A DNA stretch of 64,000 nucleotides from an uncultured Candidatus Actinomarina sp. (lineage in GTDB: Bacteria; Actinomycetota; Acidimicrobiia; Actinomarinales; Actinomarinaceae): positions 23,473-87,472 of the forward strand of contig CACIJJ010000002.1 in the NCBI GenBank assembly GCA_902587025.1, read 5' to 3'. Made by a program: the position numbers and the translations under genes. Positions 3,581 to 50,763 of the stretch are shown in pieces (the first letter of the stretch is position 1; each line of letters begins with the position of its first letter). The notes under the pieces were generated by a model. That model was not told where the DNA came from, did no database searches, and was given only the letters and a program-made list of their open reading frames with translations.

Positions 3581-3642
3581 ATAAACACATGCTATATTGA
3601 TATACAAAAATTCTACTAAGTCGATTGCTAAAATAAATACAT

Positions 3643-6138
3643 ATGAATCAAGTTAAAAAAAATAACATTTTTATTTTTTTAATAATATTTGTTGTAACTT
3701 TCATTCTCTTCTTATTTTTTAATTTATTTGATCAAAAAAATAATTTAGAAATTAATAAATTAGAAGAAAATATGTGTAAATATCACCATTCATCACTACT
3801 CAAAGAAAATTTTTCAGACACTTCAGTAGTTTTAGATATTCAATATAAAAGTAAAGGACTCTCCGTTTTTCCAGATTTAAAAAACATACTATGTGTCGGA
3901 AAAGTCATAGATTATGAGATTAATTTTTATGAGGAGGTTGGCAATTTAACTTATGTAAAACTTAATTTATATGTATTTACTCATGAAAGAATAATTAACC
4001 TATTAAAAATTTTCTTATTAATATTTATAGTTTATTTCCCAAAACTTCCATTAATTAATGACTCTTTTAGCAAAAATAATAAAATCGTCATTCTTGTATT
4101 TTTTTTACTTTTAATAAACCTAATTTTTAGTCTCAAATTTTCGATTGTTAATTTAATTATTGATATTATTTTTTACTCAACTCTGACAATATTTTTTGGA
4201 TCTGATAGTAAAAGATTTGATTTAGTAAACAAGAAACATAATATTTCCATCGATAGCCTCAGGGCTGTTGCAGTATTAGCAGTAATTTTTAATCACTTTG
4301 GATTTAAGTCTTTCGCAAGTGGCTATTTAGGTGTAGATTTATTTTTTGTTATATCTGGATATGTAATTACTAAAAAATATATACATATTAAAAATGATTC
4401 TTCTTTAAGCTTTTACGCAGAGTTTGTCTTTTTTAGATTAAAAAGAATTATTCCTAATCTAATATTTTTCATTACAATCACTTCAATTTTTGTATACCTT
4501 TTAGATTACAACTATAAAAATACACTTATCGGGGCACTTTTTGCTGTATTTGCAATTTCAAATATTTACTTTTACGTAAATTCACTTGATTATTTTTCAA
4601 TAGACTCTTCATTAAATTCATTTACCCATACATGGTCACTTGGAGTCGAAGAACAATTTTATTTAATTTTCCCTTTTCTAATTTATGCATTTGCAAGAAA
4701 TAAAATAAAAAAATCTTATTTTTTAATTCCTACTCTTTTATCTGTATTTTTGTTTTATTCAAGCACCACTACAAGTCCAAGTGCTACTTATTACTTAATA
4801 CAATATAGATTTTGGCAAATAGCATTAGGTTGCCTCTTAATAATATATAGTTTTGAATTAAAAAAATTAGCAAATCTAATACCAGTAAATGCTTTTTTAA
4901 TACCATTAATATTAGTTTTTACAATAAATACATCATATTCACGAAATTTAACATTGATATCAACCCTATTATTTGCGTTAATTATTTTAGGTATTGGAAA
5001 CTCTGACCAAAAGAGTAAAGTTCTAGAATCACCAAAACTAGCAACAATAGGTGTGTTGTCATATTCCCTATATTTATGGCATTGGCCAGTAATTAGTTTA
5101 TCTAAATGGACAAATTTTAAATTTATGACTTTTGAACTTCAGATGTTATTAATTATTACTCTTTCACTACTTTCTTTTAAATTCATAGAACAACCCTTTA
5201 GAAACATATCAATTGATAAGAGAAAAAAATATTTATTAATTCTATTTTCAACTACATTTTTGGTTTGGGTGTCTGTTTTTTCAATTACTAAATTTACAGA
5301 TAGAGACAATACATTGTCTGGAAACAATCCATACGTATTCGAGAAAAAAGATTACAAAAATATAGTAAATGAAATAGATTGCTATCACCCGAATGACATA
5401 GATAATGCTTTCGAGTCATGTATGGTTTATAAAAATGAAAAAGTAAATGTTTATCTGATTGGAGATAGTCATTCAACAAACCATTTTATTAGTTTAGAGC
5501 AAAACTTTAGAAATCAAGAAAATTATAACTTTAACCACTTAGTTGAGTGGGGGTTTATTAGAGATATCCAAGGGATTAAAGGTTGTGCACCAAGTCAAAA
5601 ATGCATTGAAAATAGTTTTGAAAAGCACTTAAATTTTTTTAGAGAAAACTTAGATAAAAATGATATTGTAATTTTTTCTTTTTCAAGAGATTGGTTCAAA
5701 ATAGATGGAGATTTACCCAGAAAAAATATAAATTCAAAGTTAACAAATTTTGAAAATAATTTTTCTAACTTAATTCAAACAATTAAAAACACTAACGCAA
5801 AAATCATCCTTTTAGATGACATACCTAAAACATGTAGCTCAAATGTAAATTTTTATAACGACATTATTGTGAAAGGCAATATCGATTCTTGTACGGTGTC
5901 AGAGGCTGTATCAATCAAAGATAGAAAAGAGCTCACAGATTTATATTCTAAATTTTTAGATGAAAATACAATTTACCTAGATCCTCACAAGGACTTCTGT
6001 AATGACGGCTTTTGTTCAATAATTGACTTAAAAACAAATGAAATAATGTTTTCAGATCTTTCGCCACATATATCGAAAAATGGACTAAAAATTATGGATG
6101 AATTTTGGAAAAAAAATTTTTACACATTAACTAAATGA
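3643..6138 (+). CDS. OafA-like O-acyltransferase (acyltransferase-3 membrane domain + C-terminal SGNH hydrolase domain) with ~200-aa N-terminal extension
   Basis: Acyltransferase-3 signature LRAVAVLAVIFNHFG...GYLGVDLFFVISGYVI, multiple TM segments, and a C-terminal GDSHS (SGNH) motif in YLIGDSHSTNHF. 831 aa. Confidence 0.7.
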   Translation: MNQVKKNNIFIFLIIFVVTFILFLFFNLFDQKNNLEINKLEENMCKYHHSSLLKENFSDTSVVLDIQYKSKGLSVFPDLKNILCVGKVIDYEINFYEEVGNLTYVKLNLYVFTHERIINLLKIFLLIFIVYFPKLPLINDSFSKNNKIVILVFFLLLINLIFSLKFSIVNLIIDIIFYSTLTIFFGSDSKRFDLVNKKHNISIDSLRAVAVLAVIFNHFGFKSFASGYLGVDLFFVISGYVITKKYIHIKNDSSLSFYAEFVFFRLKRIIPNLIFFITITSIFVYLLDYNYKNTLIGALFAVFAISNIYFYVNSLDYFSIDSSLNSFTHTWSLGVEEQFYLIFPFLIYAFARNKIKKSYFLIPTLLSVFLFYSSTTTSPSATYYLIQYRFWQIALGCLLIIYSFELKKLANLIPVNAFLIPLILVFTINTSYSRNLTLISTLLFALIILGIGNSDQKSKVLESPKLATIGVLSYSLYLWHWPVISLSKWTNFKFMTFELQMLLIITLSLLSFKFIEQPFRNISIDKRKKYLLILFSTTFLVWVSVFSITKFTDRDNTLSGNNPYVFEKKDYKNIVNEIDCYHPNDIDNAFESCMVYKNEKVNVYLIGDSHSTNHFISLEQNFRNQENYNFNHLVEWGFIRDIQGIKGCAPSQKCIENSFEKHLNFFRENLDKNDIVIFSFSRDWFKIDGDLPRKNINSKLTNFENNFSNLIQTIKNTNAKIILLDDIPKTCSSNVNFYNDIIVKGNIDSCTVSEAVSIKDRKELTDLYSKFLDENTIYLDPHKDFCNDGFCSIIDLKTNEIMFSDLSPHISKNGLKIMDEFWKKNFYTLTK

Positions 6139-16332: not shown

Positions 16333-17946
16333 ATGATAAAAAAGATTCAATCTATTTTTTCAAAAGTATTGTATGTATCTAAACTAACAAAAGTCAAAAA
16401 TAAAAAATATAGAATCGCAGCATCAGTGATGCTCTCTAATTTAGCAGTCGGTATGGATGTTTTAATAATTGTCCTATTTGCATCTATTTTAAATAATGAA
16501 ATTTATTATGAAAATGAAACAATAGTTAGTTTTTTTGATTTTATGATTTCAAATGTATATTTACTTCCATTTTTGGTTGTATTTAGGTTTTCCTTTTTAT
16601 TTATTGAAAGACTAAATATTGAAGATTTAAGCTTAAAAGTAAATGAAAGTCTGAAAAATTACTTATTAACCTTGTCTTTTGAAAAAGGCAATATGTCTTC
16701 TAATGATTCTTATTACTTCATAAACCAAGTAAGTATGCATGCCTCAGCTTTTTATAGATCATTTACTATGTTTATAAATAGTCTGATTCAAATTATTGGA
16801 TATTCAATAGTCCTTTTGTTTACGGACCCAAGTACTTTTATATATTTTGCTGTTGGTGCTTTAGTCCTTGTTATACCGACTAGATTCCTTTTGAGAAAAG
16901 GAAAGTATTACCAGCATCTTTCATTTGAAGAAGGAAGGCGTCTAAATTCATATATACAAAGAGTAATTGATAATGTTTTTTTAATAAAAATATTATCAAC
17001 GATGAAATATGAGTTTAAGAAATTTTCGGAAACAGTTGGAGATTTCAATAAATACCAAATTAGAAATATTTATTATGGATCGCTAAATAGTATACTTCCT
17101 ACTTTCGGCACATTATTTATTTTGGCTCTGCTGTTCACAACTGATATTGTCAAACAATTGTCTTTAGAGTTTATAGGAGTTCTTTTAAGATTATTTCAGT
17201 CACTTAGTGCCTTAAACAATGGCTTTAACTTACTTGTTAATTCTAGTGTTCATGTAGAGGAACTTTATAAACTTGATACGTCAAGCCCTGTTGTCGTGAA
17301 ATCTAATTATATAATAAGTAAGTCGCAAAAGAATGCAGTTGAATTTTCCAATGTTAGCTTTCAGTATCTTAATTCAGAAATTTTTATTTTTGAGAATCTA
17401 AATTTAAATATAAAAGATAAATCTCATACTATATTAACTGGACCTAACGGATCAGGAAAAAGTACTATTTTAGGATTAATTTCTGGGCTATATTTACCAA
17501 AATCAGGAATTGTAAGTATTAATAGCCCTAATAAAGGATATGTTGGAGTAACCCCTTTAATCACCCAAGACACATTACGGAACAATTTTTTGTATGGAAA
17601 TAAAATGGAAATAAAAGACAAAAAGATATTAGATTTGATGGAAGAATTTAATTTTTTTGCTTCTATAAAGGACGGAGATTTAGATAGAATCATTGATAAT
17701 AAATCACTATCTTCTGGTCAATTACAAAAAGTCTCATTTATAAGGTCATTATTAAATAATGTAGAAATACTCTTACTTGATGAATCAACATCTAATCTTG
17801 ATTCAGAAGCTAAGAAATTAATTTTTGATATTCTTAGTAATAAAAATATTACAATAATTAATTCAACTCATTCAAAAGAAGATTTTAATTATCATAATGA
17901 AATAAAAATTGAAGTAGATGAGGATACAAGGAAAATTATTTTTTAG
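16333..17946 (+). CDS. ABC exporter, fused transmembrane + ATP-binding domains (MsbA/PglK-like half transporter)
   Basis: N-terminal roughly 300 aa with about 6 TM segments. C-terminal Walker A LTGPNGSGKST, signature LSSGQLQK, Walker B LLLDESTSNLD. Confidence 0.7.
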   Translation: MIKKIQSIFSKVLYVSKLTKVKNKKYRIAASVMLSNLAVGMDVLIIVLFASILNNEIYYENETIVSFFDFMISNVYLLPFLVVFRFSFLFIERLNIEDLSLKVNESLKNYLLTLSFEKGNMSSNDSYYFINQVSMHASAFYRSFTMFINSLIQIIGYSIVLLFTDPSTFIYFAVGALVLVIPTRFLLRKGKYYQHLSFEEGRRLNSYIQRVIDNVFLIKILSTMKYEFKKFSETVGDFNKYQIRNIYYGSLNSILPTFGTLFILALLFTTDIVKQLSLEFIGVLLRLFQSLSALNNGFNLLVNSSVHVEELYKLDTSSPVVVKSNYIISKSQKNAVEFSNVSFQYLNSEIFIFENLNLNIKDKSHTILTGPNGSGKSTILGLISGLYLPKSGIVSINSPNKGYVGVTPLITQDTLRNNFLYGNKMEIKDKKILDLMEEFNFFASIKDGDLDRIIDNKSLSSGQLQKVSFIRSLLNNVEILLLDESTSNLDSEAKKLIFDILSNKNITIINSTHSKEDFNYHNEIKIEVDEDTRKIIF

Positions 17947-29456: not shown

Positions 29457-31017
29457 TATCGTACTTTTTTACAATTAAAAATGAAATAGTTAGACAAACC
29501 AACAATACAAAGAAAAAATTAAATATTGGAATCTGATCAACATTATATAGCAGGGATTGAAAATCTGAATTGTCTCCAGGTAGTTTATTTGATATTAGAA
29601 AGTTAGTGAACACCTCTGGTTTAACAAATAATAAAATTATTTTAAATATAAATGCCCCAAAAAAACTTGTTGAAAATATTTTTAAATATGAATCAGTTTC
29701 TATAAAAGAACTTAGGAGTCCAAAAAGGTATTTAGAATTAACAAATTTTCTTTCAATTCCAAAGCTATTAATTTGATAATCCAAGGATAGCTGGGTACCA
29801 ATACTAGCTTCAAAGAAAACTACCCCAATAATTCCAAAAATAGAAAATAATTTTAAATAAATTTTTATATATTTTTTCTCAAAGTATTTACTTGTAAAAA
29901 ATAATAATGTTGACAGAGGTATTAAGTTAAGAAGATACCTGTAGCCATACGATGAAGCAGTCGATTGCCATAATAACACTATTCCGTAAATTTGTGAATA
30001 TGAAACAAAAATCAAGAATTTAAAAAGTAAATTTTTTTTTGTATTTACAATAATAATAAAAGCGATAATACTACCAAGAAAAACAATTGGATTGAACCAA
30101 ATCAAACCAAATTCTTGTCCAAAAAATATATTTTTTATTGCATTCAAATTTGTAATTAATAAACTACTAAAATCTTGGTTTGAAAAATATGAGCCAACCA
30201 CGTTAGATGTGTTATAAACTATTTGGGGGTTAAATACTAGGCTTCCATAAACACCTATAGATAAAAAACAAAAAATTAAAAAATTTATTACCAAAGATAT
30301 TTGAAACTTTAAGTCTTTGTAAACAGATTTTACAATATTTATTCTTTCTCTAGAAATACACTCAACAAGATAAGGGACAAATAAAACATACAGGTGCACC
30401 CATTTAGTTAAAATTGCAAGCAAAATTGAAATAGAGATAAAAATAGCATATTTTCCGTCCATTCTTGTTAGATGGTATTTAACAGTAAAATACATAACAC
30501 ATATAATTGAAAAAACTTCATAAACATGTGACATGCTGTACCTTTCAAACGCGAAGTATGACAATCCAGAACCAAAGATGATTAGGAATACCATATTAAA
30601 TTGATTTCTTATTTGTAATAATTCAAGTATTTTATTCATTAGAAATATAGAAAAAAACAGATACATTACAGAAGAAATCGAATAAAAAAGAATTTTTATG
30701 TTAAAAACATTACCCGATTGGCTCAAAACATTGTTTAGCAAATTCCCAATAAAAATAAATGGTGCAGAAAAAATTCCTGACCCAATGAATCCTGAAGGAG
30801 CACTAACTCCTTCTTTATAGAACCTAGCTTTTTCATTACCAGACAATTGATTAGAATAATCAAGGTCAAAGTCTAATGCAATAGTCTCAGCATGCATATA
30901 GTAATCATGATCATCTTTACAGCAATATATCTCTTCAATAAATCTGTAGTCTGTTTTTGTAATCAAAAGAAAAAAAAATGTAAAAAGAATTAATAATAAT
31001 TTTTTATTTAATATCAT
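29446..31017 (-). CDS. polytopic membrane protein, possible GtrC/GT-C-like glycosyltransferase
   Basis: 523 aa with more than 12 TM segments. Lies immediately downstream of, and overlaps by 14 nt, the GtrB-like GT2 at 31004-31978. Confidence 0.4.
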   Translation of the reverse strand: MILNKKLLLILFTFFFLLITKTDYRFIEEIYCCKDDHDYYMHAETIALDFDLDYSNQLSGNEKARFYKEGVSAPSGFIGSGIFSAPFIFIGNLLNNVLSQSGNVFNIKILFYSISSVMYLFFSIFLMNKILELLQIRNQFNMVFLIIFGSGLSYFAFERYSMSHVYEVFSIICVMYFTVKYHLTRMDGKYAIFISISILLAILTKWVHLYVLFVPYLVECISRERINIVKSVYKDLKFQISLVINFLIFCFLSIGVYGSLVFNPQIVYNTSNVVGSYFSNQDFSSLLITNLNAIKNIFFGQEFGLIWFNPIVFLGSIIAFIIIVNTKKNLLFKFLIFVSYSQIYGIVLLWQSTASSYGYRYLLNLIPLSTLLFFTSKYFEKKYIKIYLKLFSIFGIIGVVFFEASIGTQLSLDYQINSFGIERKFVNSKYLFGLLSSFIETDSYLKIFSTSFFGAFIFKIILLFVKPEVFTNFLISNKLPGDNSDFQSLLYNVDQIPIFNFFFVLLVCLTISFLIVKKYDTRA

Positions 31018-31978
31018 TATTTATTTTAGAAAAATTATTTTGATAGTAATCACTTTCAATTGATTGTGATCTATTGAATAGAAATATAAAAAACAAAAAA
31101 AACAAAAGACCAGTTAAAAACCAAGATGATTGTATCCCGATCTTGTTGCCATATCTTATATAAAAAAAGTTAATAAAACTGTAAATAGAAACTATAAATG
31201 AAAAGATTGAGGCAATATCTAAAAAAGAAGATGACTGAAGGTCTGAAAAATACAATTTCATTTTTATTTTTGCAAAGTAACTCTTTAATGTTGTGTATAT
31301 AAGTTTATAAAAGATTACGGAAGCTCTTAAACCACTTTTTTGCCCACCATATTCTACTTTATTTTGATATTGCCCAAATTTAATACTTTCAGTTACAATT
31401 TTTTTTGACATAAAAATTGTTAAAAAAAACGGATATCCATATCTGTAAAAAAATTTTGGCATTTCAAAATCACCTAAAGCTTTCTTTGATATCAAAAATA
31501 GACCGTTCAGTGGATCATTGATTTTCCAGTTGCCTGTAGCAATTTTTATTAGAATTGAAGCAAACGAATTACCAACATATCTTATAGTTGGAATTTCTCC
31601 AACAATACCTTCACTCCAGAATCTATCGCATTTAACAAAGTCGAATTGATTAGTTTCATTTAGTTTAATTAATCTAAGTACATCTTTTTTTGAGAACTGG
31701 TTATCCCCGTCAATTTTTATTACATAATCAGAATCACTTAATATAAATTGATTAATTCCAATTTCAAAAGACTTTCCAGCTCCAAGATTTTTTTGATTGT
31801 TGATTACATTTAAATTGGGGTATAAATTTTCTAGTTTTAATAAAATATTTTGAGTGGAATCTGTACTCTTATCGTTGACAACAATTATTTCATTAAATAA
31901 AGATGAATATGAATTTATTACATCATTTAAATATGATTCTTCATTGTAAGCCAAAACTAGTAATGATTTTTTCATCAA
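31004..31978 (-). CDS. GT2 glycosyltransferase with C-terminal TM anchor (GtrB-like bactoprenol-phosphate sugar transferase)
   Basis: LVLAYNEESYL, then VVNDKSTDST, then KIDGDNQF (DxD). Two C-terminal TM helices. Confidence 0.7.
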   Translation of the reverse strand: MMKKSLLVLAYNEESYLNDVINSYSSLFNEIIVVNDKSTDSTQNILLKLENLYPNLNVINNQKNLGAGKSFEIGINQFILSDSDYVIKIDGDNQFSKKDVLRLIKLNETNQFDFVKCDRFWSEGIVGEIPTIRYVGNSFASILIKIATGNWKINDPLNGLFLISKKALGDFEMPKFFYRYGYPFFLTIFMSKKIVTESIKFGQYQNKVEYGGQKSGLRASVIFYKLIYTTLKSYFAKIKMKLYFSDLQSSSFLDIASIFSFIVSIYSFINFFYIRYGNKIGIQSSWFLTGLLFFLFFIFLFNRSQSIESDYYQNNFSKINNDIK

Positions 31979-33699: not shown

Positions 33700-34677
33700 T
33701 TATTTCTTAGAAGTTACTAAAGATTTTATACTTACTTTAAAGAATTCTAGTGGATAGTCATAGTCAAAAATTCTTAAATTAATTAAATTTTTTATAATAA
33801 AAAAGAAGCTTGAAAGTTTTTTGTTTGTGACAACATGATATTTTTTGGAACTAATTTCTCTGAACTCATCTTGATAAAAGTTAGAATTTTTATATTGTAT
33901 AAATTCTAAATTCCAAGGTTTACCTTTTCCACTAAAATGTAAAAAGCAAATATTTTCTTTCACATATTCGTAGGTATAACTTGGATTATCAAAGATTCCA
34001 AGATTAAAATTAAGACTATTACTCATATCCATAAAGTTATTGTCGAAAGCTTTATTCAGAAGATCTTGATCCCAGTAGATGATATTCTTTTTGTATTTTT
34101 CCAAAATACTTAAAAGACTTTTTTGAGTATCATTATCTTTCCACATATTAAAGTTCATTACTAATACACCCGCATTAAAATAATTGTTTCCTTTTAGGTC
34201 AAGTCTTCTAAAAAACTTTTCTGCTTCTTCTTTTGTCCAATTTTCATAATCATTTCTCATACCTTCTGTTCTGGCTGCAACTGGCTTTACTGTATTTTTC
34301 AAATTTAGGATTGTTTCATGAAGTAAAGGTAGGGGATTATTAAGACAAATAATATCTGCATCGAGATAAATTAAAAAATCTATATCTACATCAACATATT
34401 CTTCAGCAAATATTCGATAGTAAGTTGCTTCAGAGACGTGTGCGTTTTTCAATTTAGGAAAATCATGATTTTTTAATTTAAATTCAGAAATTTTTATATC
34501 ATTAATATTTTCATTTTTAATAATGGCATTGTAATAATTAATAAATGAAGCAGGGTTTTTATGGATAATATAAATATTGACTTTTTCGTCAATATTTTTT
34601 AAGAGAGAGTTTATTGAGACAAAAGCTTGGGTATTATAATTTTCATCAAAACAATATAAAAAATTTAAATGGCTCAT
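33700..34677 (-). CDS. GT8 glycosyltransferase (LPS alpha-1,3/1,2-glycosyltransferase RfaJ/WaaJ-like)
   Basis: CFDENYNTQAFVSINS, then IYLDADIICL (DxD), then YFNAGVLVMN, the GT8 signature blocks. Confidence 0.7.
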   Translation of the reverse strand: MSHLNFLYCFDENYNTQAFVSINSLLKNIDEKVNIYIIHKNPASFINYYNAIIKNENINDIKISEFKLKNHDFPKLKNAHVSEATYYRIFAEEYVDVDIDFLIYLDADIICLNNPLPLLHETILNLKNTVKPVAARTEGMRNDYENWTKEEAEKFFRRLDLKGNNYFNAGVLVMNFNMWKDNDTQKSLLSILEKYKKNIIYWDQDLLNKAFDNNFMDMSNSLNFNLGIFDNPSYTYEYVKENICFLHFSGKGKPWNLEFIQYKNSNFYQDEFREISSKKYHVVTNKKLSSFFFIIKNLINLRIFDYDYPLEFFKVSIKSLVTSKK

Positions 34678-39449: not shown

Positions 39450-40464
39450 ATATTTGATTTTTTCTAAAGCGATATTTTTTTAGAACTCTTAATTTGTATC
39501 TTTTGATGTTAAATATAATTTTTTCAAATAATCTTAAAATGTAGCTTTCATTTAAATTTACAGAATCATGTGAATCAATTTGTTTTTCTTTGAATAATGA
39601 AATCCAATATTTTTTATCAAGCTTATCGAAGTTAAACCTTTTTTTAGAAATATATTTTTTTGCTTCAATTAAAAACTCATAATTTATCTCATTAAAATGC
39701 TCCACAATAATTACTGGCAAGTCAGATGTGGTCTCTTGAAAAGTTGGATGTTTTTCAACAATTGGTATAGCTCCTGCGTAAAGCGACTCCCATAATCTAT
39801 GTGTATCATAGCCATTTCCAAAAGGGCAAAGAACAAAATCTGATGAGCTTAATGATTTGAGATAGTCTTTCAATTCTAAATTAGGAGACTCTATTTTTAC
39901 CCAGCTTTTCTTTTCAAAGTGCCGATACAATTCACTTCTAACCTTATCATTTGTATTTATTTGAAAATTAATATAAAGTAGATTTTCTTTTTGAATAATT
40001 TTATTTTTTTTACTGTGCTGTAAAAAATGTTCTTTAAGTAAATTTTTTTTTGAGTAACTATTTGAAATACCCAAAGGAAAAGCTCTTAATTCTGGATGGT
40101 CTATGTTTATATTTACAGAAAACCATTCCGAAATACACTCTGGTTTACTTTTAAATAATTCATAATTTATAGGTTCGTCAGATTGGGCTGTTATGAGTTT
40201 AATATTTTTTAAATTTACTTTGTCTAAGAGTTTAAAAAGTGACTTTACACATGAAAGATTTGTAAAAATTGTATCATTTTCATTAAGCTGAACTGACTTT
40301 AATTTGTAAAAGATTTGTCCATCTATATTTGATATTATGTAGTAGTTACTTAATTCAAGATTGTTAAACTCTTCAGTTGTAACAAGTTCTGAATAGACAA
40401 CATCACACTCTCTAGCAATCTCATAACTTGAAATAAAATTAATTTTACTAAAGTCAGTCATCAT
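39397..40464 (-). CDS. exostosin-like (GT47-type) glycosyltransferase
   Basis: FVLCPFGNGYDTHRLWESLYAGAIPIV resembles the exostosin C-terminal FCLxPxG...R..EAL..GCIPVI block. Confidence 0.4.
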   Translation of the reverse strand: MMTDFSKINFISSYEIARECDVVYSELVTTEEFNNLELSNYYIISNIDGQIFYKLKSVQLNENDTIFTNLSCVKSLFKLLDKVNLKNIKLITAQSDEPINYELFKSKPECISEWFSVNINIDHPELRAFPLGISNSYSKKNLLKEHFLQHSKKNKIIQKENLLYINFQINTNDKVRSELYRHFEKKSWVKIESPNLELKDYLKSLSSSDFVLCPFGNGYDTHRLWESLYAGAIPIVEKHPTFQETTSDLPVIIVEHFNEINYEFLIEAKKYISKKRFNFDKLDKKYWISLFKEKQIDSHDSVNLNESYILRLFEKIIFNIKRYKLRVLKKYRFRKNQIFTKFQNTFLSRSSSRLL

Positions 40465-41378
40465 TTAATCAAATCAAAAAGTAAGTTGTAGGTTTTTTCT
40501 TGATCTCTATAATTAGTAAATTTATGGAAATTATTATTAATGATGTTTTTGTACATTAATGTAAATTGATTAAATTCCCCTACATGAGTCTTTTCTGTAG
40601 TTTCTTCAGAATATATTTCAAAGTAACTGTGAAAATTATCTGGTTTTGAAAAAATAAACGGAAAATGATAAGAACTCTGCAAAGTATCAAATCTCAATTC
40701 ATTTGAGTAAACATCTGAAATACCCCACCTGGAATTAAATTTTATGCCAGATTTAGTTTCAATTTCTATCTCTCCTCCTAGATCAACGTCAATATTATTG
40801 TCAGAAACTTTACTAAATTTATTAATTATGTAATCTTCTTTTTCTAGACTAAAAAAAAGGGATAAAGGATAAATACCTAAATCTAATGTAAAACCACCAC
40901 CTTTATCTTTCTGATATCTAAAATTTTGTTTGTCCATTTCGGGTATCGTAAAGTTTGCTTCAATACTTTGCACATTATTACTTTTAAAAACATTAATAAC
41001 TTCATCCCATAAAGGATGATGCAAATACATCAATCCTTCAAAAATTCTTTTTTTGGATTTATCTTTTAGAAAATCCTTATATTCAAATAATTTAGAACTA
41101 TTCGACAAAGGTTTTTCAATAAGGAAAACATCTGAAAAAGTTTTAATCTGTTCAAAATTTTCTAAATGCGAATTTGGAGTAGATGCAATAATTACAAAAT
41201 CATAAGTACAATTTTTATCAAGGTGATCAAAGTTTTTAATTCGTACCTTACCGGATTCTTCAACATTTGTTTTTTTTCTATCAACAATTTCAATGCAAGA
41301 TATTTTGTTAATATTTAATAGTGCCGGAATAATTCTTTTAGAAGTGTGAATACCGTTTCCAATTACTAATATTTTCAA
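40461..41378 (-). CDS. Gfo/Idh/MocA-family NAD(P)-dependent oxidoreductase
   Basis: N-terminal Rossmann KILVIGNGIHTSKRIIPAL and an EKP motif (LIEKPL). Confidence 0.55.
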   Translation of the reverse strand: MKILVIGNGIHTSKRIIPALLNINKISCIEIVDRKKTNVEESGKVRIKNFDHLDKNCTYDFVIIASTPNSHLENFEQIKTFSDVFLIEKPLSNSSKLFEYKDFLKDKSKKRIFEGLMYLHHPLWDEVINVFKSNNVQSIEANFTIPEMDKQNFRYQKDKGGGFTLDLGIYPLSLFFSLEKEDYIINKFSKVSDNNIDVDLGGEIEIETKSGIKFNSRWGISDVYSNELRFDTLQSSYHFPFIFSKPDNFHSYFEIYSEETTEKTHVGEFNQFTLMYKNIINNNFHKFTNYRDQEKTYNLLFDLIK

Positions 41379-41433
41379 TTTCTTTTATTATAAAGCTTTA
41401 ATATTTAAATCTTATTCAACAAATTCATATTAT

Positions 41434-42444
41434 TTGATTATTATCAAATTTATGAAAATATTAGTTACCGGATGTTTTGGCTTTATTGGATTTAATTTTT
41501 TAAAATATATAGATTCGAATTATAAAAATGAAATAGAAATAATTGGAATTGATTCATTAGAATCAGCAGGTTCTACTACTAATAGTGTTAATTATAAAAA
41601 TGATAAATTTACTTTCATCAAAGGTAATATTGTAGATATCAACAGTTTTGAGATTTCTAAAATTGATGTTGTTGTAAATTTTGCCGCAGAAACCCATGTT
41701 GATAATTCAATCTTTATGCCTGAAAAGTTTATAGATTCAAATGTTCTTGGTGTGACAGAGTTGTTAAAATTTGCAGTGAAAAATAAGATTTCAAAATTTG
41801 TTCATATTTCTACAGATGAAGTTTATGGAAGTGTTCAAAATGAATATTGTAAGGAAAGTAATTTTTTTAACCCCTCTTCACCATATTCTGCATCTAAAGC
41901 TAGCGCTGAGTTAATATGTAACTCATTTATAAAAACATATGGCCTAAATATTTTAACAGTTAGGCCTGCCAATAATTATGGATACTTTCAACAACCTGAA
42001 AAACTTATACCATTTAGCGTTGCAAATCTATTGAACAATCAAAATATTGAAATCTATGGAGACGGTAAAAATATACGTCATTGGCTTCATGTCTCTGATA
42101 CTTCAAGTGCTATTTTAAAAATAATTGAACAAGTTAATGAGCCAGATGTTTTCAATGTTGGTTCTGGAGTTTATATGAACAATATTGACTTAAGCCATAA
42201 GTTGCTGAGTATTTTGAATTTAACTGATGAAAGAATTACATTTGTTGAAGATAGGCCCGGGCATGATTTCAGATATGCTATTGATTTCTCAAAATTAAAA
42301 TCTCTTGGTTGGGAACCACAGGCCCAATTCGACAATGAACTAGGAAATACTGTCAACTGGTATATCAATAATGAAGAATGGTGGAAAAATTCTTATCAAA
42401 ATATTATAAATAGTAAGAGAAAAAAAAGGAAAGGATTGGTTTAA
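41434..42444 (+). CDS. rfbB: dTDP-glucose 4,6-dehydratase
   Basis: ILVTGCFGFIGFNF, YSASKASAE (YxxxK), HWLHVSDTSSA (the RfbB HV.D motif). Confidence 0.7.
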   Translation: MIIIKFMKILVTGCFGFIGFNFLKYIDSNYKNEIEIIGIDSLESAGSTTNSVNYKNDKFTFIKGNIVDINSFEISKIDVVVNFAAETHVDNSIFMPEKFIDSNVLGVTELLKFAVKNKISKFVHISTDEVYGSVQNEYCKESNFFNPSSPYSASKASAELICNSFIKTYGLNILTVRPANNYGYFQQPEKLIPFSVANLLNNQNIEIYGDGKNIRHWLHVSDTSSAILKIIEQVNEPDVFNVGSGVYMNNIDLSHKLLSILNLTDERITFVEDRPGHDFRYAIDFSKLKSLGWEPQAQFDNELGNTVNWYINNEEWWKNSYQNIINSKRKKRKGLV

Positions 42445-42451
42445 TTCTGAT

Positions 42452-43318
42452 ATGAAAACAGGCGGAATTTTACTTTGTGGAGGTCATGGTACAAGACTTT
42501 TTCCTACAACAAAATATATTAACAAACACTTAATACCAATTTATGACAAACCAATGATATATTACTCACTTTCAATTCTGTTACTTGCAGGGATGAGGGA
42601 AATAACAATAGTTTGTAATCCTGAAGACAGAGATTCATTTCAAAAACTATTAGGAAGCGGAGAAGAATTTGGAGCGGACATTAAATATTCAGTACAAGAA
42701 GCACCACTAGGAATACCAGATGCAATTTCAAAAGCCCTAGAGGTGTCGGAGTACGACAAATTTATTACAGTATTAGGCGACAATTTTATATTTGGTCAAA
42801 ATTTTTTTACTAATTTAGAATTTATATATAACAATACAGTCACTTCCTCTATTTTTCATCAAAAGGTGAAGAACCCAGAAGACTTTGGCGTAATTGATGT
42901 AGACAGTAATAACAAAATTACATCTATAATTGAAAAACCAAAAAAGTATATCTCAAATAAGGCTGTAATAGGTCTTTATATTTTTGATCATAATTTTCAA
43001 AATTATTTTGAAAACTCTTCTCATTCAAAAAGAAATGAATATGAAATTGTTGATATATTGAATCAATATTTGAACAATAATTTACAACATCATGAAATTG
43101 GGAGGGGAACAGCTTGGTTTGATATGGGTACAACAGAGGCATTTTTTAATTGTTCTTCCTTTGTAAGGACAATCCAGGAAAGACAAGATGTTTTAGTTTG
43201 TTCTCCGCATGAAATTGCTTATAGAAACAACTGGATTGATCAAATATCTTTAGAAAACTACATTGGAACTATTAAAGGATCTGAATACTCTGAAAACTTG
43301 ATTAATTCTTTGCTATAA
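42452..43318 (+). CDS. rfbA: glucose-1-phosphate thymidylyltransferase
   Basis: GGILLCGGHGTRLFPTTKYINKHLIPIYDKPMIYY, the RmlA N-terminal signature. Confidence 0.7.
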   Translation: MKTGGILLCGGHGTRLFPTTKYINKHLIPIYDKPMIYYSLSILLLAGMREITIVCNPEDRDSFQKLLGSGEEFGADIKYSVQEAPLGIPDAISKALEVSEYDKFITVLGDNFIFGQNFFTNLEFIYNNTVTSSIFHQKVKNPEDFGVIDVDSNNKITSIIEKPKKYISNKAVIGLYIFDHNFQNYFENSSHSKRNEYEIVDILNQYLNNNLQHHEIGRGTAWFDMGTTEAFFNCSSFVRTIQERQDVLVCSPHEIAYRNNWIDQISLENYIGTIKGSEYSENLINSLL

Positions 43319-43320
43319 AT

Positions 43321-44445
43321 ATGTATAGAAAGATAAATTTTCATGAACCCTCTGAGTCTTCTAAGATTAAAAAGTATGTCAACCAATCGCTAAATACGAA
43401 TTATTACTCAGAAGGAATTTTTGACTACAAAGTTAAAAAATACCTGGCATCAAATTATGGTCTCAAGAATACACTCATTACCCACAGTGCAACAGGTGCT
43501 TTAGAGTTAAGTGCATTAATTGCAAAAAGCTCTTTTCCTAATAAAAAAGTTTTCTTACCATCGTACACATTCTCTTCAACTGCAAATGCATTTATAAGAG
43601 CTGGATTTAAAATTCAATTTTTGGACATTGTAAAAGAGAACTTTATGATTGATTTTAAAGAATCAGTAAAAAAAGTTCAAAATAACATACTTGTTCCAGT
43701 TCACTATGCAGGATTTCCTGTAGAAATGCATGGATATAGAGATTTTAAAAAAGAAGGCTTTTTAATTGAAGATGCCGCACAAGGATTAGGTGCAACATGG
43801 AAAAATAAGAATGTTGGTACTTTCGGTAATTTATCTGCATTTTCTTTTCACTATACAAAAAATATTCATGGGGGGTTTGCAGGCCTTATCTCAGTTAATG
43901 AAAAAAAATATTTTGAACAAGCAAAATTTATATATGAGCGCGGTACCGATAGGACAAAGGTGGTTTCGGGTTTAAAAAATAGATACCAATGGGTAGAGAT
44001 AGGTTCTAGTTTTCAGGTTCCTGATATATTAGCAGCTATAATTTATGCTCAACTTGAGGACTATGAAGTTATCAATAAAAAGAGAAAAAAAGTTTATGAA
44101 TTTTATTCAAACTTGTTCTCATCTAAGGATTACAGCTCTTTCTTTACACTTCCCAAATATTCAATTCAAAGTAGGCACAACAACCATGCTTTCTTTCTAA
44201 TATTTAATACAGACAAACAAGCGAGTAATTTTATTGAGTTTACAAAATCTAAAGGTGTAAATTGTTATATTGGATACGTCCCACTTCATAATTCAAAAAT
44301 GGGAAAAAGATTAGGACTAGATAAGAGACTAAACAATACAGAAACTTACGCAAAAAAAATTGTTAGATTACCATTTCATACAAACCTTATAAAAGAAGAC
44401 CTTAATTATATTTCAGAAGTTTTTGAAAGCTATTTCAAATTATAG
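43321..44445 (+). CDS. DegT/DnrJ/EryC1/StrS-family PLP-dependent sugar aminotransferase
   Basis: Fold-type I aminotransferase blocks with the PLP lysine context FSFHYTKNIHGG. 374 aa. Starts 2 nt after rfbA. Confidence 0.7.
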   Translation: MYRKINFHEPSESSKIKKYVNQSLNTNYYSEGIFDYKVKKYLASNYGLKNTLITHSATGALELSALIAKSSFPNKKVFLPSYTFSSTANAFIRAGFKIQFLDIVKENFMIDFKESVKKVQNNILVPVHYAGFPVEMHGYRDFKKEGFLIEDAAQGLGATWKNKNVGTFGNLSAFSFHYTKNIHGGFAGLISVNEKKYFEQAKFIYERGTDRTKVVSGLKNRYQWVEIGSSFQVPDILAAIIYAQLEDYEVINKKRKKVYEFYSNLFSSKDYSSFFTLPKYSIQSRHNNHAFFLIFNTDKQASNFIEFTKSKGVNCYIGYVPLHNSKMGKRLGLDKRLNNTETYAKKIVRLPFHTNLIKEDLNYISEVFESYFKL

Positions 44446-45201
44446 AAAAATTAACCTAGCAAGATGGGGATTGACATAAGGTCCGTGATTTATAAACTGA
44501 ATTATTTGGAATTTGCTTATCCATTTAAAATTATCATCTAAATCACCAATTTGTTCAAAATCGATATTTTTAACTAATCCAAGATTCCTTTTATTAAAAA
44601 GACGACCACCATCTTCCGACAACCATTGCTTAAATATAAAACTATCTTCACTTTCATAATCTTTGAAAAATTCATAATATTTTGGTTCAGATCCTTTATG
44701 AGCTTTTTTTATATTAGAGAATGTAGCTTGAAGAGAGGGGCTTAATTGTATGAGTTCATAATTTCCTGGTTCAAACTTAGCTTCTACTAAATAATGAGGA
44801 AGTCCATTGATCTCGGACCTAATCAATCCTAATATACCACCATCAAAGTCAATCTCCGATATTATTGGCTGATTCCACCCTTTAACACCTACTTCTCTCG
44901 TAGATGAGTTTCGTATTTTCAGACCAAATATTTCAAAAAATTTACCTGATTCATGTTTAAAATTACCATCCTTATCAGATGACCAAGATTCTAAATCATT
45001 TAAATTTATTTTTTCAACGCTAGCTGAAAGATTGTTTTTAAGATTTTCTAACCAAGAAAATAAATCTTCAAAAGATTCAGAATTATTCGTACAATAAATT
45101 GATTCAATTAATTTTTCAATCTCTAGATTGCTTTTATCATTAAGAATTTTTGAGAGTCTTTTTTTAAGTTGATTGAATTCACTTAGATTTATATTGCTCA
45201 T
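44440..45201 (-). CDS. hypothetical protein, possibly NDP-hexose 2,3-dehydratase-like domain
   Basis: YLVEAKFEPGNYELIQLSPSLQATFSN resembles the hexose-dehydratase repeat, but only one domain of 253 aa is present. Confidence 0.25.
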   Translation of the reverse strand: MSNINLSEFNQLKKRLSKILNDKSNLEIEKLIESIYCTNNSESFEDLFSWLENLKNNLSASVEKINLNDLESWSSDKDGNFKHESGKFFEIFGLKIRNSSTREVGVKGWNQPIISEIDFDGGILGLIRSEINGLPHYLVEAKFEPGNYELIQLSPSLQATFSNIKKAHKGSEPKYYEFFKDYESEDSFIFKQWLSEDGGRLFNKRNLGLVKNIDFEQIGDLDDNFKWISKFQIIQFINHGPYVNPHLARLIFL

Positions 45202-47089: not shown

Positions 47090-47157
47090 TGTTCACATTT
47101 TAATAAAATTAAAATACTAGATAATTAAATAGTTAAAATGTATAAGTACTAAATTTT

Positions 47158-48165
47158 ATGAAAAAAATAATCAGTGAAAATTACAAATCAATTCGGGTAA
47201 AACCAATAAATTTTAACGATAAGGATGATCTTTTATTCAAAAATGAGTATGTAAAAACAATACCTGAAACTTACTATTTGTTCGACAAAAACATATATTT
47301 AAATAATAATAATTTGTATAAGTATAAATATTTAAATAAATACTTGTCCGAAACAAAGATGGATACTGACAATTGGAACTTTTTTAAGAACAGTTTAAAA
47401 AAGTTGGTGAATAAATCTTTTCCAAAGCATATTAGCTATATTGACCAAGCTAGCTGGGTGATTGATGACAAGAGTATAAATTATTTTCATTGGATGACAG
47501 ATGTTTTAAGTAGGATAGCCTTAATACCACCTCCTTTATTGGACAACTATCCGATAATGGTTCCAAAAAAACTTATTTATAAATCTTTTATTAGAGAATC
47601 TTTGGAGCTATTAAAGACCAATTACATAACCTACGAAGAAAATGATAGTTATAAAATTGGTAAAATGTTGATAACTAGTCACGTTGCACCTGCCGGAAAT
47701 TTTAATAAGAATTTTATTTTAACAGTAAGAGATCAGCTTTTAAAAACAATTGATACAAGGCCTAATACAGGAGCAAGGCTTTGGGTAAGTAGAAAAAAAC
47801 AAAATAGAAGAATTTTGGTTAATGAAGATGAAATCTTAGAAATACTTTTAGAATTTGGTTTCCAAATTATATTACCTGAAGAACTTAGTTTTAAAGAACA
47901 ACTCAAATTATTTTCAGGAGCATCTTTATTAGCTGGAACCCATGGTGCGGCTTTGACAAATGCAATGTTTATGGAAACAAATTCAAGTATTCTTGAGATT
48001 AGAGCAAGCAATGATACACACAGGAACCCATTTTTTACTTTAGCAAGTGAATTTGATTTAAGGTATTATTATCTTCTTGCTAATCCAAAAATCGATTCTC
48101 TTGAATCTGATTTATATCTAAATCCTAAAAATTTAAAAAATACTTTGATGTCGATTTTAAATTAA
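47158..48165 (+). CDS. GT61/DUF563-like glycosyltransferase (capsular polysaccharide biosynthesis protein-like)
   Basis: SGASLLAGTHGAALTNAMFM matches the GxHGAxLxN block of the DUF563 family. Confidence 0.45.
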   Translation: MKKIISENYKSIRVKPINFNDKDDLLFKNEYVKTIPETYYLFDKNIYLNNNNLYKYKYLNKYLSETKMDTDNWNFFKNSLKKLVNKSFPKHISYIDQASWVIDDKSINYFHWMTDVLSRIALIPPPLLDNYPIMVPKKLIYKSFIRESLELLKTNYITYEENDSYKIGKMLITSHVAPAGNFNKNFILTVRDQLLKTIDTRPNTGARLWVSRKKQNRRILVNEDEILEILLEFGFQIILPEELSFKEQLKLFSGASLLAGTHGAALTNAMFMETNSSILEIRASNDTHRNPFFTLASEFDLRYYYLLANPKIDSLESDLYLNPKNLKNTLMSILN

Positions 48166-48260: not shown

Positions 48261-49955
48261 GTGGATACAATCGAAATTGAAGGCATTTGTGGACCAACTC
48301 CAGTTGATTTTATAGAACCCAATATAACTGGTAGCGATTATATTTTTCAAAACGATCCTTTGTTTGATCCATTAAATGTCTATGATTTTTTTGGAAGAGG
48401 CGCTACCGTAAACTCTTTCTCAGAGTGTTTTTATTATGTAAATCTAGGTTTCTCACCAGATAAAGTAACTATTTTTGATTATTTAATACCAACTATATTC
48501 ACACTAGCTATAGGTCTATTTGGCTTTTTATTGTATAAATGGAATTTTAAAACTAAATTAATTGATTTATTTTCAACAATTAAAAAAATAGATTTCAAGA
48601 AATATAAGAATAATAGGATTACCCCAAAAATTTTATTTTCAATTTTTCTAATTTGGTCTTTAATTCAGTATTATTTTTTATTTCGTTATGTAAGTTCTAA
48701 GGCCCTTCGCATACCTTCATTTATCGATGAATATAATGTTATTTCCTCCAGTTATCTATTTTTTACACAATTAGATTTTAATGCTGGAGGATATCTTGGA
48801 GGAAATTATACAGTCCAGCTGACTTCAGGACCACTTTCTGCTTTAGGTGGGGTAATAGGTTGGAGCTTAACTGAAAGCTTTAATTTTTCAAGGGTTTCAA
48901 ATTTTATTTGGCTGTTTTTATTGCAGTTCACATTGGCATTTTTTATTGGTAAAAATTTTAATTTAGATAAAAAATTTCTTTTTCTCACTTCTGGTCTGTT
49001 TTTAATACTCATACCATGGTGGCAAGGGGGTCTTTATTCTTTAGGAGAAATTCCTTCAACAATATTATTTGTGAGTGCAGTATTTCTATTTTCAAAATAT
49101 AGGAAAACATCTATAATTTTATTTTCGCTCGGAATATTTTATGCAAAAATATTAACATTCTTACCTTTTATTGCGTTTTATATTGTAATAGCAATTTACG
49201 AAAGAAATCTAAAGAATATAGTTTCTGATATTATAGTTTTTTTAATTCCTATTTCATTTTGGCTCATATTAGTTTCTCTAAAGTATGAAAACGGATCCTT
49301 AATAGATTACTTATTTAATCAATTTAACTTCATTACTCAACACAAAGCTTCTGGGATTAATAATACCGATTATTCTTTTTATGAAAATTTCATAAATACT
49401 TTGAATGACTCAGAGTTCTCGGGATGGAATATATATGAAAAAATTAGATTAATTTTATTACCACTAGCGTTCATATTTTTAATATTTAGAAATAGAGTAA
49501 AAATAGATAAATATTTTGGATTCATCTCTATTCCAATAATATCTTCAACTTTGTCTATTTACTTTTGGTTTTGGCTCCTTAACTCAACAAAGTGGATTAG
49601 ACACACGCAACACTTTACTGTCTTGATGATTTTTTCATTAGTCTATATTTTAAATTCGAATGCTATACGAAATAAATTTGATTTAATTTTAATTAACACC
49701 ATTTTGTTTTTATTAATAGACAACAACAAGGAAATGATTTTATTCTTTGTATTTATCAGTTTTTTAATCATTACAATACTGGACAAAAGCTATATAAAAT
49801 CTGCGGCTAAAGTGATCCTAGTTTTTTTTATTGCATTAGATATAATTCTCGTAAACGAAAATATTGTAGTTTTTGAAAATCTTTATCAAACTTATATGAA
49901 CTGTGAAATTACAATTTTATCCGAAGATTGTAGGATAACTTATCTTGGAAGATAA
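48261..49955 (+). CDS. polytopic membrane protein, possible GT-C-type glycosyltransferase
   Basis: 564 aa (GTG start) with more than 12 TM segments. Converges on, and overlaps by 16 nt, the DPM1-like GT2 at 49940-50641. Confidence 0.4.
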   Translation: MDTIEIEGICGPTPVDFIEPNITGSDYIFQNDPLFDPLNVYDFFGRGATVNSFSECFYYVNLGFSPDKVTIFDYLIPTIFTLAIGLFGFLLYKWNFKTKLIDLFSTIKKIDFKKYKNNRITPKILFSIFLIWSLIQYYFLFRYVSSKALRIPSFIDEYNVISSSYLFFTQLDFNAGGYLGGNYTVQLTSGPLSALGGVIGWSLTESFNFSRVSNFIWLFLLQFTLAFFIGKNFNLDKKFLFLTSGLFLILIPWWQGGLYSLGEIPSTILFVSAVFLFSKYRKTSIILFSLGIFYAKILTFLPFIAFYIVIAIYERNLKNIVSDIIVFLIPISFWLILVSLKYENGSLIDYLFNQFNFITQHKASGINNTDYSFYENFINTLNDSEFSGWNIYEKIRLILLPLAFIFLIFRNRVKIDKYFGFISIPIISSTLSIYFWFWLLNSTKWIRHTQHFTVLMIFSLVYILNSNAIRNKFDLILINTILFLLIDNNKEMILFFVFISFLIITILDKSYIKSAAKVILVFFIALDIILVNENIVVFENLYQTYMNCEITILSEDCRITYLGR

Positions 49956-50641
49956 TCATTTTTATATTTTTTTCTAATTTTTACTAGATCTCTAAGCATT
50001 ACTATTGAGTCTTTAATTAATGAGACAGAAGAATTTCTATTAAAATTATATTTAATTGGTACTTCTTGTATTTCTAACCCTATTTCTTTACAAGCTTGAA
50101 TTAAATCTACATCAAAAGAAAACCCTGAAAAAGTTAACCGTTCTGAAATTTTTTGAATTTTATCGCTGTGTAAATATTTGAAACCACATTGTGTATCTTT
50201 GATATCTATATTAAACATTTTTCTTACTATAAAATTAAAAACTTTTCCGGCTAAAACCCTTCTAATTGGTGTATTAATCTCATTGCCTAGACTTCTTGAA
50301 CCAATTAATAAATGATAATTTTTTTTAGAAAGCCAATCAGGATTAAACTCTTTGATGTCTGTAGATAAATCTGCATCTAATATTAGAACTTTATCAAACT
50401 TACAATTTTGTAAGCCTTTTTTAACAGCTGCGCCCTTACCTTTTATGTATTCATTAAGTAACAACACGTATTGCGGATTAACTAAACTATGTATTTTCTC
50501 AACAGTGCTGTCTGTTGATTTATTATTTACTATTAATATCTCACCTTCGCATTTGTTTTCCAGCATCCATTCTTGAACTCTTTTAATACTATCGACAATT
50601 ATTTCTTCTTCGTTGAAGCAGGGTATAACTATACTTATCAT
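49940..50641 (-). CDS. GT2 glycosyltransferase, polyprenol-phosphate sugar synthase (DPM1/ArnC-like)
   Basis: ISIVIPCFNEEEII, then LIVNNKSTDST, then LILDADLS. Confidence 0.75.
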   Translation of the reverse strand: MISIVIPCFNEEEIIVDSIKRVQEWMLENKCEGEILIVNNKSTDSTVEKIHSLVNPQYVLLLNEYIKGKGAAVKKGLQNCKFDKVLILDADLSTDIKEFNPDWLSKKNYHLLIGSRSLGNEINTPIRRVLAGKVFNFIVRKMFNIDIKDTQCGFKYLHSDKIQKISERLTFSGFSFDVDLIQACKEIGLEIQEVPIKYNFNRNSSVSLIKDSIVMLRDLVKIRKKYKNDYLPR

Positions 50642-50763
50642 TAATACTTTAATTTAAAACTTTGTTCAAAAACAGAAACTATTGTCGGATATATTCATGA
50701 ACAATTATTACACAAAATAAAAATTTAAATAAAAGTAGTGAAGTTTTTTTATAAATTTATTTT

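Follow-up and report, generated by a model that had tools for sequence, protein, structure and literature searches.

A single flexible genomic island (fGI), 43-79 kb long, with a GC content of ~28% and dedicated to the synthesis of envelope polysaccharides, occurs throughout Candidatus Actinomarinales (López-Pérez et al. 2020, mSystems, PMC7771536), and here we compare this island with a 64,000-nt stretch of DNA from an uncultured Candidatus Actinomarina sp. (GenBank assembly GCA_902587025.1, contig CACIJJ010000002.1, positions 23,473 to 87,472 of the forward strand; the whole stretch is hereafter the window), in which a block of glycan genes lies between two arrays of small tRNA-bounded cassettes. 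The gene content of the published island, fGI1, varies even inside one species, and the island is described as growing from its ends, with tRNAs as the targets of incoming cassettes and a partial-tRNA direct repeat closing each insert (PMC7771536). The same study names tRNA-Asp, tRNA-Phe and tRNA-Val at the ends of fGI1, counts five tRNAs per island, reports tRNA-Asp and tRNA-Phe as single-copy in Ca. Actinomarinales genomes, describes a prophage within a tRNA-Val as well as insertion elements in a boundary tRNA of the single-amplified genome (SAG) AG-891-I09, and considers an outer membrane unlikely for the group (PMC7771536). In a 2026 preprint on 84 complete genomes, 'Actinomarina, resolved', this locus goes under the name of a tRNA-bounded hypervariable region (10.64898/2026.04.03.716425). 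A related system is known from Prochlorococcus, also a streamlined marine host with few other mobile elements: its tycheposons use tyrosine recombinases at island tRNAs, newcomers push older inserts inward and leave partial tRNAs behind, and some tycheposons resemble phage-inducible chromosomal islands (PICIs) and carry terS (bioRxiv 10.1101/2020.12.28.424599).

The window agrees with fGI1 in organism group, chromosomal neighbourhood, size class, low GC content and kinds of genes, and we found no essential difference that would set it apart from an instance of that island. Its nrdJ protein shares 96-97% amino acid identity with those of the Actinomarina/OCS155 SAGs AG-422-J23 (97%) and AG-891-I09, and close nrdJ matches came from Actinomarina in every case. 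The core of the island measures 47.2 kb and the distance from intact tRNA to intact tRNA 55 kb, GC content in 2-kb windows is 0.24-0.32 in the island vs. 0.34-0.39 over nrdJ, and the locus also combines a Ca. Actinomarinales host, conserved flanks, envelope-polysaccharide genes, strain-variable content and tRNA targets with partial repeats; the window holds 3 tRNA genes, vs. the five per island counted in PMC7771536. With high confidence we read the window as covering fGI1, the 'glycotype' island, of Candidatus Actinomarina, organized in two tiers, a core and its edges. fGI1 and the tRNA-bounded hypervariable region of the preprint are one locus, already published for this lineage, and an earlier note made from the letters of the window alone, which had proposed a hypervariable surface-glycan island between inward-facing tRNA integration hotspots, is a correct rediscovery, borne out by gene content, tRNA arrays, synteny and the published island. 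The gene set found here may be a version outside the 43 published islands. In the published text consulted we did not find the attP-like cassette scaffold, the link of the cassettes to an integrase/primase/TerS element, or the scar-free core that we describe below.

The intact tRNA-Phe (195-268, + strand) and tRNA-Val (55279-55353, - strand) genes, both called by ARAGORN, point their 3' ends into the island, and each is accompanied by three partial copies that correspond to tRNA positions 31-74 for tRNA-Phe and 32-75 for tRNA-Val. The anchors and the cassettes that hold these remnants are laid out as follows, with percentages after a 3' half giving its identity and L-numbers denoting the compared loci (SAG loci and metagenome contigs; L002 is AG-891-I09):

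115-268, + strand: left anchor, tRNA-Asp (115-190) and intact tRNA-Phe (195-268), 97-99% conserved in L108-L117
269-1066, + strand: cassette P1, DUF2231 membrane protein (337-852), right arm, 3' half 1023-1066 (100%)
1067-1753, + strand: cassette P2, HhH-GPD base-excision glycosylase (1094-1687), 3' half 1711-1753 (97.7%)
1754-3581, + strand: cassette P3, O-methyltransferase (1856-2617), 272-aa protein with no assigned function (2649-3467), oldest 3' half 3540-3579 (87.5%)
3582-50766, both strands: glycan core of 44 genes, characterized by Pfam, NCBIfam and layout
50767-51084, - strand: cassette E3 region, oldest 3' half 50767-50807 (90%), empty degenerate cassette, second 3' half 51045-51084 (100%)
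51085-51870, - strand: cassette E2, right arm (51085-51232), 173-aa protein (51213-51734), left arm, 3' half 51827-51870 (100%)
51871-55278, + strand: cassette E1, the newest, 103-aa protein (52050-52361), 750-aa Hsp70-like ATPase (52367-54619), 195-aa coiled-coil protein (54609-55196)
55279-55353, - strand: right anchor, intact tRNA-Val (TAC), 3' end toward the island

Remnant identity declines with distance from the intact tRNA, the crossover lies at the anticodon stem-loop, and a shuffled-sequence control gave 0 such tRNA matches. The same 44-nt crossover recurs in 8 related loci and 115 metagenome contigs. The flanking arrays of tRNA-Phe and tRNA-Val, with 3' ends turned inward, are as the earlier note had described them, and its reading of the tRNA ends as integration hotspots is strengthened by the reuse of one crossover in many genomes and by integrase-bearing elements at the site in relatives. 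The limits it set, 3581 and 50756, coincide with the outermost tRNA-Phe and tRNA-Val remnants at both ends, although the intact tRNA-Val lies 4.5 kb past the right one. A second 'tRNA-Phe' called by ARAGORN (987-1066, 80 nt) is not a gene; it is made up of the P1 right arm and the 44-nt 3' half, a pseudo-tRNA that annotation pipelines would miscount. Short-read metagenome contigs begin (1017-1094) or end (51005-51089) at the 44-nt repeats (L101-L107, L118-L126), and such breaking at repeats probably explains why island edges are missing from many assemblies.

A metagenome scan with the E2 right-arm sequence returned 115 contigs, to which we added the SAG loci, and this collection contains 77 complete cassettes in 60 clusters, 177-5928 nt long (median ~1.1 kb) and mostly with 1-2 ORFs, the largest ORF being co-oriented with the tRNA in 45/56 cassettes. 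The elements of a cassette follow one order: the tRNA core, a 35-nt stretch that begins CAAGGGTTTTTCAGAAATC, a tandem pair of ~11-nt repeats, the cargo, a second copy of that pair, a right arm of ~120 nt that is rich in CTGATA/TGATAC and ends TATTTAATGGTTCTTT, and then the next core. All 60 cargo types keep the same ~180-nt scaffold with the cargo at a fixed position, and scaffold plus 44-nt core come to ~240 bp, the length of a lambda-type attP. The repeat pairs on either side of the cargo keep fixed offsets from the cassette ends, ~35 nt on the left and ~142 nt on the right, and they differ between cassettes while matching within them: an exact repeat of at least 16 nt was present in 24/56 cassettes vs. 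2.8% of cross-cassette pairs, and an 8-mer repeat test was positive in 26/33 cassettes vs. 6.2%. The 'empty' 177-nt cassette has a single repeat pair. We read these pairs as putative arm-type integrase sites of different specificities, the alternative being that they could mark a site at which cargo is swapped. Within the window the pairs are located at 51987-52011/55225-55250 in E1, where AAAAGACACAC, repeated twice, brackets the cargo at both ends, and at 51201-51226/51776-51800 in E2; they were also observed in 56 cassettes in L128-L242.

Cassettes on the tRNA-Phe side have conserved ends of their own, which implies a second integrase family; no such family was found in any fetched locus. 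Their left end consists of AGGGTTTTT followed by two ACTGTSRCA-like repeats (269-3581; L108-L117), and their right arm contains GAGCGATAA...GAATAAGTTA.

Two further observations connect the tRNA-Val cassettes with movement between genomes. E2 (~0.75 kb), its arms included, is 97-99% identical at the nucleotide level in relatives whose nrdJ flank is only 79-92% identical, and it has therefore spread horizontally in recent time. In addition, an integrase was present in only 3/191 loci (L002, L225 and L234). The 5.9-kb unit in L002 lies directly at tRNA-Val and encodes a tyrosine integrase (PF00589; phrog_1, 1.5e-50), a DUF3631 protein and TerS (phrog_4102, 6e-17), and L225 shares six syntenic genes with it, has an integrase of 44% identity, and ends in the right arm of E1/E2. 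Both elements fit a PICI-like satellite (size class ~5-15 kb), in which an integrase beside att is combined with a replication gene and terS but a full virion module is lacking. Viral contigs were scanned for three targets, the junction at tRNA-Val and the 3' halves of tRNA-Val and tRNA-Phe, and these scans gave no hit and tied no phage or satellite with a matching attP to the arrays.

In our reading, the convergent tRNA-Phe and tRNA-Val are attB sites for tyrosine-integrase elements that cross over at the anticodon stem-loop, and each insertion restores the tRNA and pushes the old 44-nt 3' half, along with everything behind it, inward. The outcome is age-ordered arrays such as those of the window (remnants of 100, 100 and 90% for Val and of 100, 98 and 88% for Phe). 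The cassettes themselves would be non-autonomous members of the ~6-kb satellite-like family, whose integrases would move them in trans, or in cis through tandem accretion. In its fullest form this would amount to a working integron-like cassette system without a resident integrase, with the integrases of satellites moving cassettes between cells and even between species, a proposal that we hold to be somewhat less likely than not.

Several known systems share parts of this anatomy. As in tycheposons, units in the window stand between a complete tRNA and a partial copy of one, and the push-inward model is common to both; unlike tycheposons, the units are mostly single-gene, ~1 kb long and devoid of an integrase/replication module, and the hosts belong to different phyla. 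In P1-P3 and E1-E3 we detected no recombinase and no primase, helicase or polymerase, and DUF3631 was present only in L002 and L225. Accretion of cis-mobilizable elements (CIMEs) with the integrative and conjugative elements (ICEs) ICESt1 and ICESt3 of Streptococcus thermophilus brings integrase-less, att-bounded units into tandem with an integrase element at the 3' end of a tRNA or other gene, and the att-bounded, integrase-less units of the window could likewise excise together with an integrase-bearing neighbour. Unlike CIMEs and ICEs, however, there is no conjugation module here, and the autonomous partner looks like a phage satellite. The likeness to integrons lies in cassettes that are small, look promoter-less and mostly hold a single ORF, in their insertion at a common site to which the newest is nearest, in ORFs that are mostly co-oriented (45 to 11), and in very diverse cargo. 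Unlike in integrons, no IntI, attI or Pc stands beside the array, which is anchored on a tRNA gene, and the site is a lambda-type attP with arms and a tRNA-derived core, not a folded attC; the cassette ends, as read directly with no folding or attC search made, consist of a ~140-nt arm plus the 44-nt tRNA core.

For the flanks and the interior of the island, we compared 26 related genomes, in each of which at most 10 kb of the island edge was readable. The right flank (57.7-64 kb) is conserved at 75-92% nucleotide identity in 19 Actinomarina loci, with tRNA-Val adjoining nrdJ in 13/19, and none of these 19 loci contained the window interior beyond tRNA-Val. It comprises the following genes:

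57705-63924: conserved right flank as a whole
57705-61097, - strand: nrdJ
61224-61967: protein with 8 transmembrane (TM) segments
61973-62794: FemAB-like GNAT protein
62791-63924: GT4 glycosyltransferase

On the left side the gene order reads argS, WecG/TagA-like glycosyltransferase (GT), GT4, ..., Bac_transf, tRNA-Asp/Phe, DUF2231, HhH-GPD (L108-L113), and loci with an identical DUF2231 gene then run into differing sets of GT, methyltransferase and ABC exporter genes. Proteins of the interior matched those of the relatives' island edges at best with 23-64% amino acid identity, and the same comparison gave 90-98% for nrdJ and 96-100% for DUF2231 and the E2 protein. Replacement is not absolute, because a partly syntenic module of ABC exporter, GT4, GT4 and GT2 recurs in L108 at 42-54% amino acid identity. 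The synteny check put forward in the earlier note thus gave the expected pattern over the edges that could be read, with conserved flanks and an interior swapped for other glycan genes.

The core and the cassettes differ in their stability. Independent Tara, JGI and GenBank metagenome contigs tile 1.0-51.1 kb of the window at 99.5-99.8% identity, one contig being 36,961 nt long; three contigs pass the second tRNA-Val remnant and continue with sequence unlike E2, and several genomes hold an extra cassette between tRNA-Phe and the DUF2231 cassette. Since outer cassettes differ on an unchanged core, the edges turn over faster than the core. Strains would carry entirely different core versions at the same place, each version being stable and widespread in the ocean. 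Numbers of contigs with identical proteins (281 blocks of the collection for the exact P1 DUF2231 protein vs. 9-17 contigs for island genes) were not used as a substitute for read recruitment. As for how cores are exchanged, candidates are block swaps by homologous recombination and ancient accretion, with the hotspots explaining growth of the edges and not necessarily replacement of the core.

The history of the core and the present state of the arrays could also be read differently. If the whole core had been built by serial tRNA-targeted cassette insertion at both ends, with old scars since eroded, one would understand why remnant identity drops with distance from each tRNA, why the outermost remnants stand exactly at the core edges and why gene orientation is near random, as fits piecemeal assembly; growth by single cassettes added at the ends is also the view preferred by López-Pérez et al. 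(PMC7771536), and some cassettes elsewhere hold polytopic or envelope-type cargo. Yet no tRNA remnant or arm is left across 47 kb while edge remnants 0.3-1.8 kb apart are still 88-90% identical, the core acts as one unit over 1.0-51.1 kb while outer cassettes vary, and its sugar-nucleotide pathways are split over genes that would be useless if gained singly, which together make a purely additive origin unlikely in our view. A different question is whether the arrays are dead, that is, decayed prophages or satellites that have lost their integrase and resemble one another through vertical descent. The window and most arrays do lack an integrase, several genomes share one fixed order of P1 and P2, and the P2 arms are degenerate, but vertical descent cannot produce an E2 that is 97-99% identical, non-coding arms included, where nrdJ is 79-81% identical (L051, L094). 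Nor does it sit well with 60 cargo types on one ~180-nt scaffold at a fixed cargo position, with array make-up that differs on an otherwise identical core, or with E1 in three contexts, and we hold it to be quite improbable that the arrays are relics only. We give hardly any credence to a chimera formed during assembly at the repeated 44-nt halves of the tRNAs, in which island and cassettes would not be contiguous in any real genome: metagenome contigs do break at these repeats and the E2-E1-tRNA-Val order was not found on another contig, but the tRNA-Val-E2 order is present in 8 SAG loci, the tRNA-Phe-P1-P2 junction in L108-L110 and L113, contigs span P2-P3-core (L101-L104) and core-E3-second remnant (L118-L121) at at least 99% identity, and in L253 the distal side of E1 shows the remnant and arm that it has in the window.

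We favour a stable, exchangeable core between cassette arrays that grow at the tRNA genes, and several points weigh against it. Pfam searches of all ORFs and tblastn with the L002 integrase found no integrase in the window, and the present-day mobility of the cassettes is something that we infer; no excised circle or empty site was seen directly. Searches for tRNA remnants with blastn-short and for cassette arms with nhmmer profiles found none within the 47-kb core. Replacement of the interior is judged from the relatives' edges, at most 10 kb each, and from the published comparison, and both the predicted glycan product and its surface location are taken from family names, several of the assignments lying below curated cut-offs.

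Turning to the cargo of the cassettes, the E2 protein is the commonest at tRNA-Val, with 422 homologues falling into tiers of 98, 87, 63 and 50% identity. The model of this 173-aa protein (pLDDT 94.8) is an all-alpha, HEAT-like solenoid; searches of Pfam, PHROG and PADLOC gave no match for it, nor did the PDB, either in sequence at a significant level or in fold at E <= 0.001. A role as cassette excisionase or regulator was considered, and nothing supports it. The neighbouring E3 region contains a 51-nt unit repeated 2.5 times (50900-51026) that duplicates part of its own left arm.

E1 is absent at tRNA-Val in L001 and L091-L095, where E2 abuts the intact tRNA, and its module recurs in L243-L247, L248-L252 and L253, with surroundings other than tRNA-Val in L243-L247 and L253; E1 occurs in three different contexts in all. 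Modules of this type, which are mobile cassettes, encode three proteins: one of ~100 aa, an Hsp70-like ATPase of 750 aa whose C-terminal extension measures ~270 aa, and a coiled-coil protein of ~195-228 aa. In two SAGs the neighbours of the module are a DNA methylase, a Bsp6I-like restriction enzyme and SbcCD, and in L253 it is fused to a unit bearing an N6/N4-methyltransferase, with the same remnant and arm at the distal end. There are ~75 full-length homologues, all from marine metagenomes, of which distant ones (43% amino acid identity) keep only the small upstream gene; an exact-sequence look-up of the Hsp70-like protein returned no record. This three-gene module could be an undescribed defence system. 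As a known system it was not called, with PADLOC giving weak matches (PDC-M61B at 1.7e-5, and Avs2/LmuB fragments). BLASTP found no similarity between the E2 protein and a 173/175-aa gene product encoded next to the Hsp70 module of L243 and L246, leaving the idea of E1 and E2 as a single unit unsupported.

Other cargo at tRNA-Val (L128-L242, L051, L094, L096) includes a Mrr-nuclease/ResIII helicase fusion (975 aa), an HSDR_N/ResIII protein (829 aa) and GmrSD, along with a sigma-70 region 4-like protein, a NucS-like nuclease, a leucine-rich repeat (LRR) protein, a trypsin-like lipoprotein, a solute-binding protein and Thr-rich surface proteins. To judge from these predicted functions, the tRNA-Val array would act as a bank of defence and surface genes beside the glycan island. 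On the tRNA-Phe side, P1 is 98-99.9% identical in L108-L117, some of which hold a newer cassette between P1 and the tRNA, P2 has homologues of 64-74% amino acid identity at the same place in L108-L110 and degenerate arms, and no homologue of P3 was found in the relatives' island edges.

The core (3582-50766) contains 44 ORFs of at least 100 aa, is 97% coding with a median gap of 4 nt and has a GC content of ~26%. Glycan-related families were assigned to 33/44 of these ORFs by Pfam and NCBIfam, 3 of the 33 lying below the Pfam curated cut-offs; 6 more are polytopic membrane proteins without a Pfam match, and 5 have no assigned function. In agreement with the earlier note, by which nearly every ORF would be a glycan gene or a polytopic membrane protein, 39/44 core ORFs fit this description. 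The following genes, named by their Pfam and NCBIfam matches, are among those of the core:

3643-6138: AT3-SGNH acyltransferase
16333-17946: ABC exporter
24063-25355: Wzy_C protein
25404-27363: GDP-mannose 4,6-dehydratase (GMD) and Fcl-like gene
33700-34677: GT8
41434-45201: dTDP-sugar set, RmlB, RmlA, aminotransferase and 2,3-dehydratase
47158-48165: GT61

Altogether 15 glycosyltransferases (five GT2, six GT4-type, and one each of GT25, GT8, GT47/RXYLT1-like and GT61) stand beside 11 sugar-nucleotide enzymes, 4 methyltransferases, the AT3-SGNH acyltransferase, a fused TMD-NBD ABC exporter of the MsbA class and the Wzy_C protein, for which an exact-sequence look-up returned no record. GDP-mannose 4,6-dehydratase scores above its NCBIfam equivalog cut-off, and the Fcl-like, RmlA-like, RmlB-like and DegT-type aminotransferase genes score under theirs. 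By these families the core probably makes GDP-fucose-type and dTDP-amino/deoxy sugars, from which the ~15 transferases would assemble a glycan on a lipid carrier with O-methyl and O-acyl decoration, and the Wzy-like protein and the MsbA/PglK-class ABC exporter would polymerise or export it. Initiating enzymes, Bac_transf and a WecG/TagA-like protein, are conserved just left of the window. The dTDP-sugar region (40461-45201) combines RmlA/RmlB-like genes and a DegT-type aminotransferase with a GFO/IDH/MocA oxidoreductase and an unusually short (253 aa) NDP-hexose 2,3-dehydratase; chemistry of this kind is more familiar from deoxysugar antibiotics than from glycans of the cell surface. Three pairs of a GT2 gene with a polytopic protein of ~520-565 aa (29446-31978, 48261-50641 and 55369-57708) look, from their architecture, like extracytoplasmic glycosylation modules.

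Enzyme families of the window match those of Gram-negative O-antigen and lipooligosaccharide (LOS) clusters as well as Gram-positive wall-polysaccharide and teichoic-acid glycosylation loci, with GT2, GT4, GT8, GT25, Wzy_C, GDP-fucose and dTDP-sugar pathways, an AT3 O-acyltransferase and GT2/polytopic pairs in common. Compared with O-antigen/LOS clusters, gene orientation in the window is near random instead of forming one long operon, and only the Wzy_C domain family is shared with WaaL-type ligation. The earlier note had spoken of LOS-type glycosyltransferases combined with O-antigen-type machinery, and the families behind these words (GT8, GT25, Wzy_C and the ABC exporter) are present, but the terms are homology labels only, and an outer membrane is unlikely. 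The actinobacterial host shows no evidence of an outer membrane or lipid A, and the acceptor must therefore be a wall or membrane polymer. Orientation switches at 23/43 core junctions, in keeping with the frequent strand switching it had remarked on. Junction gaps of 0-60 nt or overlaps, which it had also reported, hold for the overlaps (3' overlap in 8/12 convergent pairs) and for the median gap, whereas a few of the divergent gaps, which range over 34-193 nt, exceed 60 nt.

Glycan genes also lie outside the limits of the earlier note, at 1856-2617, 55369-57708 and 61224-63924. The second of these stretches is a variable pair located 5' of tRNA-Val:

55369-57006, - strand: 545-aa protein with 10 predicted TM segments
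57016-57708, + strand: GT2

Among relatives (L001-L018, L091-L096) the spacing from nrdJ to tRNA-Val varies from 47 nt to 3.4 kb, with one or two GT2 genes and with or without the ~550-aa polytopic protein. The variation of this stretch, which lies 5' of tRNA-Val, is not explicable by integration at the tRNA 3' end.

As an island, the locus is a textbook example of the many surface types that abundant, streamlined ocean bacteria maintain within one species, presumably spreading the risk from phages. Its residual value lies in the cassette scaffold and the link of that scaffold to an integrase/TerS element. Should the proposed cassette system prove to work as outlined, it would supply defence genes (Mrr/ResIII, GmrSD and the Hsp70-like module) and envelope genes to a 1.1-Mb genome thought to be nearly free of mobile elements, and would provide a concrete, testable pair of att site and integrase for an uncultured lineage. 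Shuttling of cassettes by satellite integrases would then explain how a genome nearly without mobile elements samples a large pool of defence and envelope genes.

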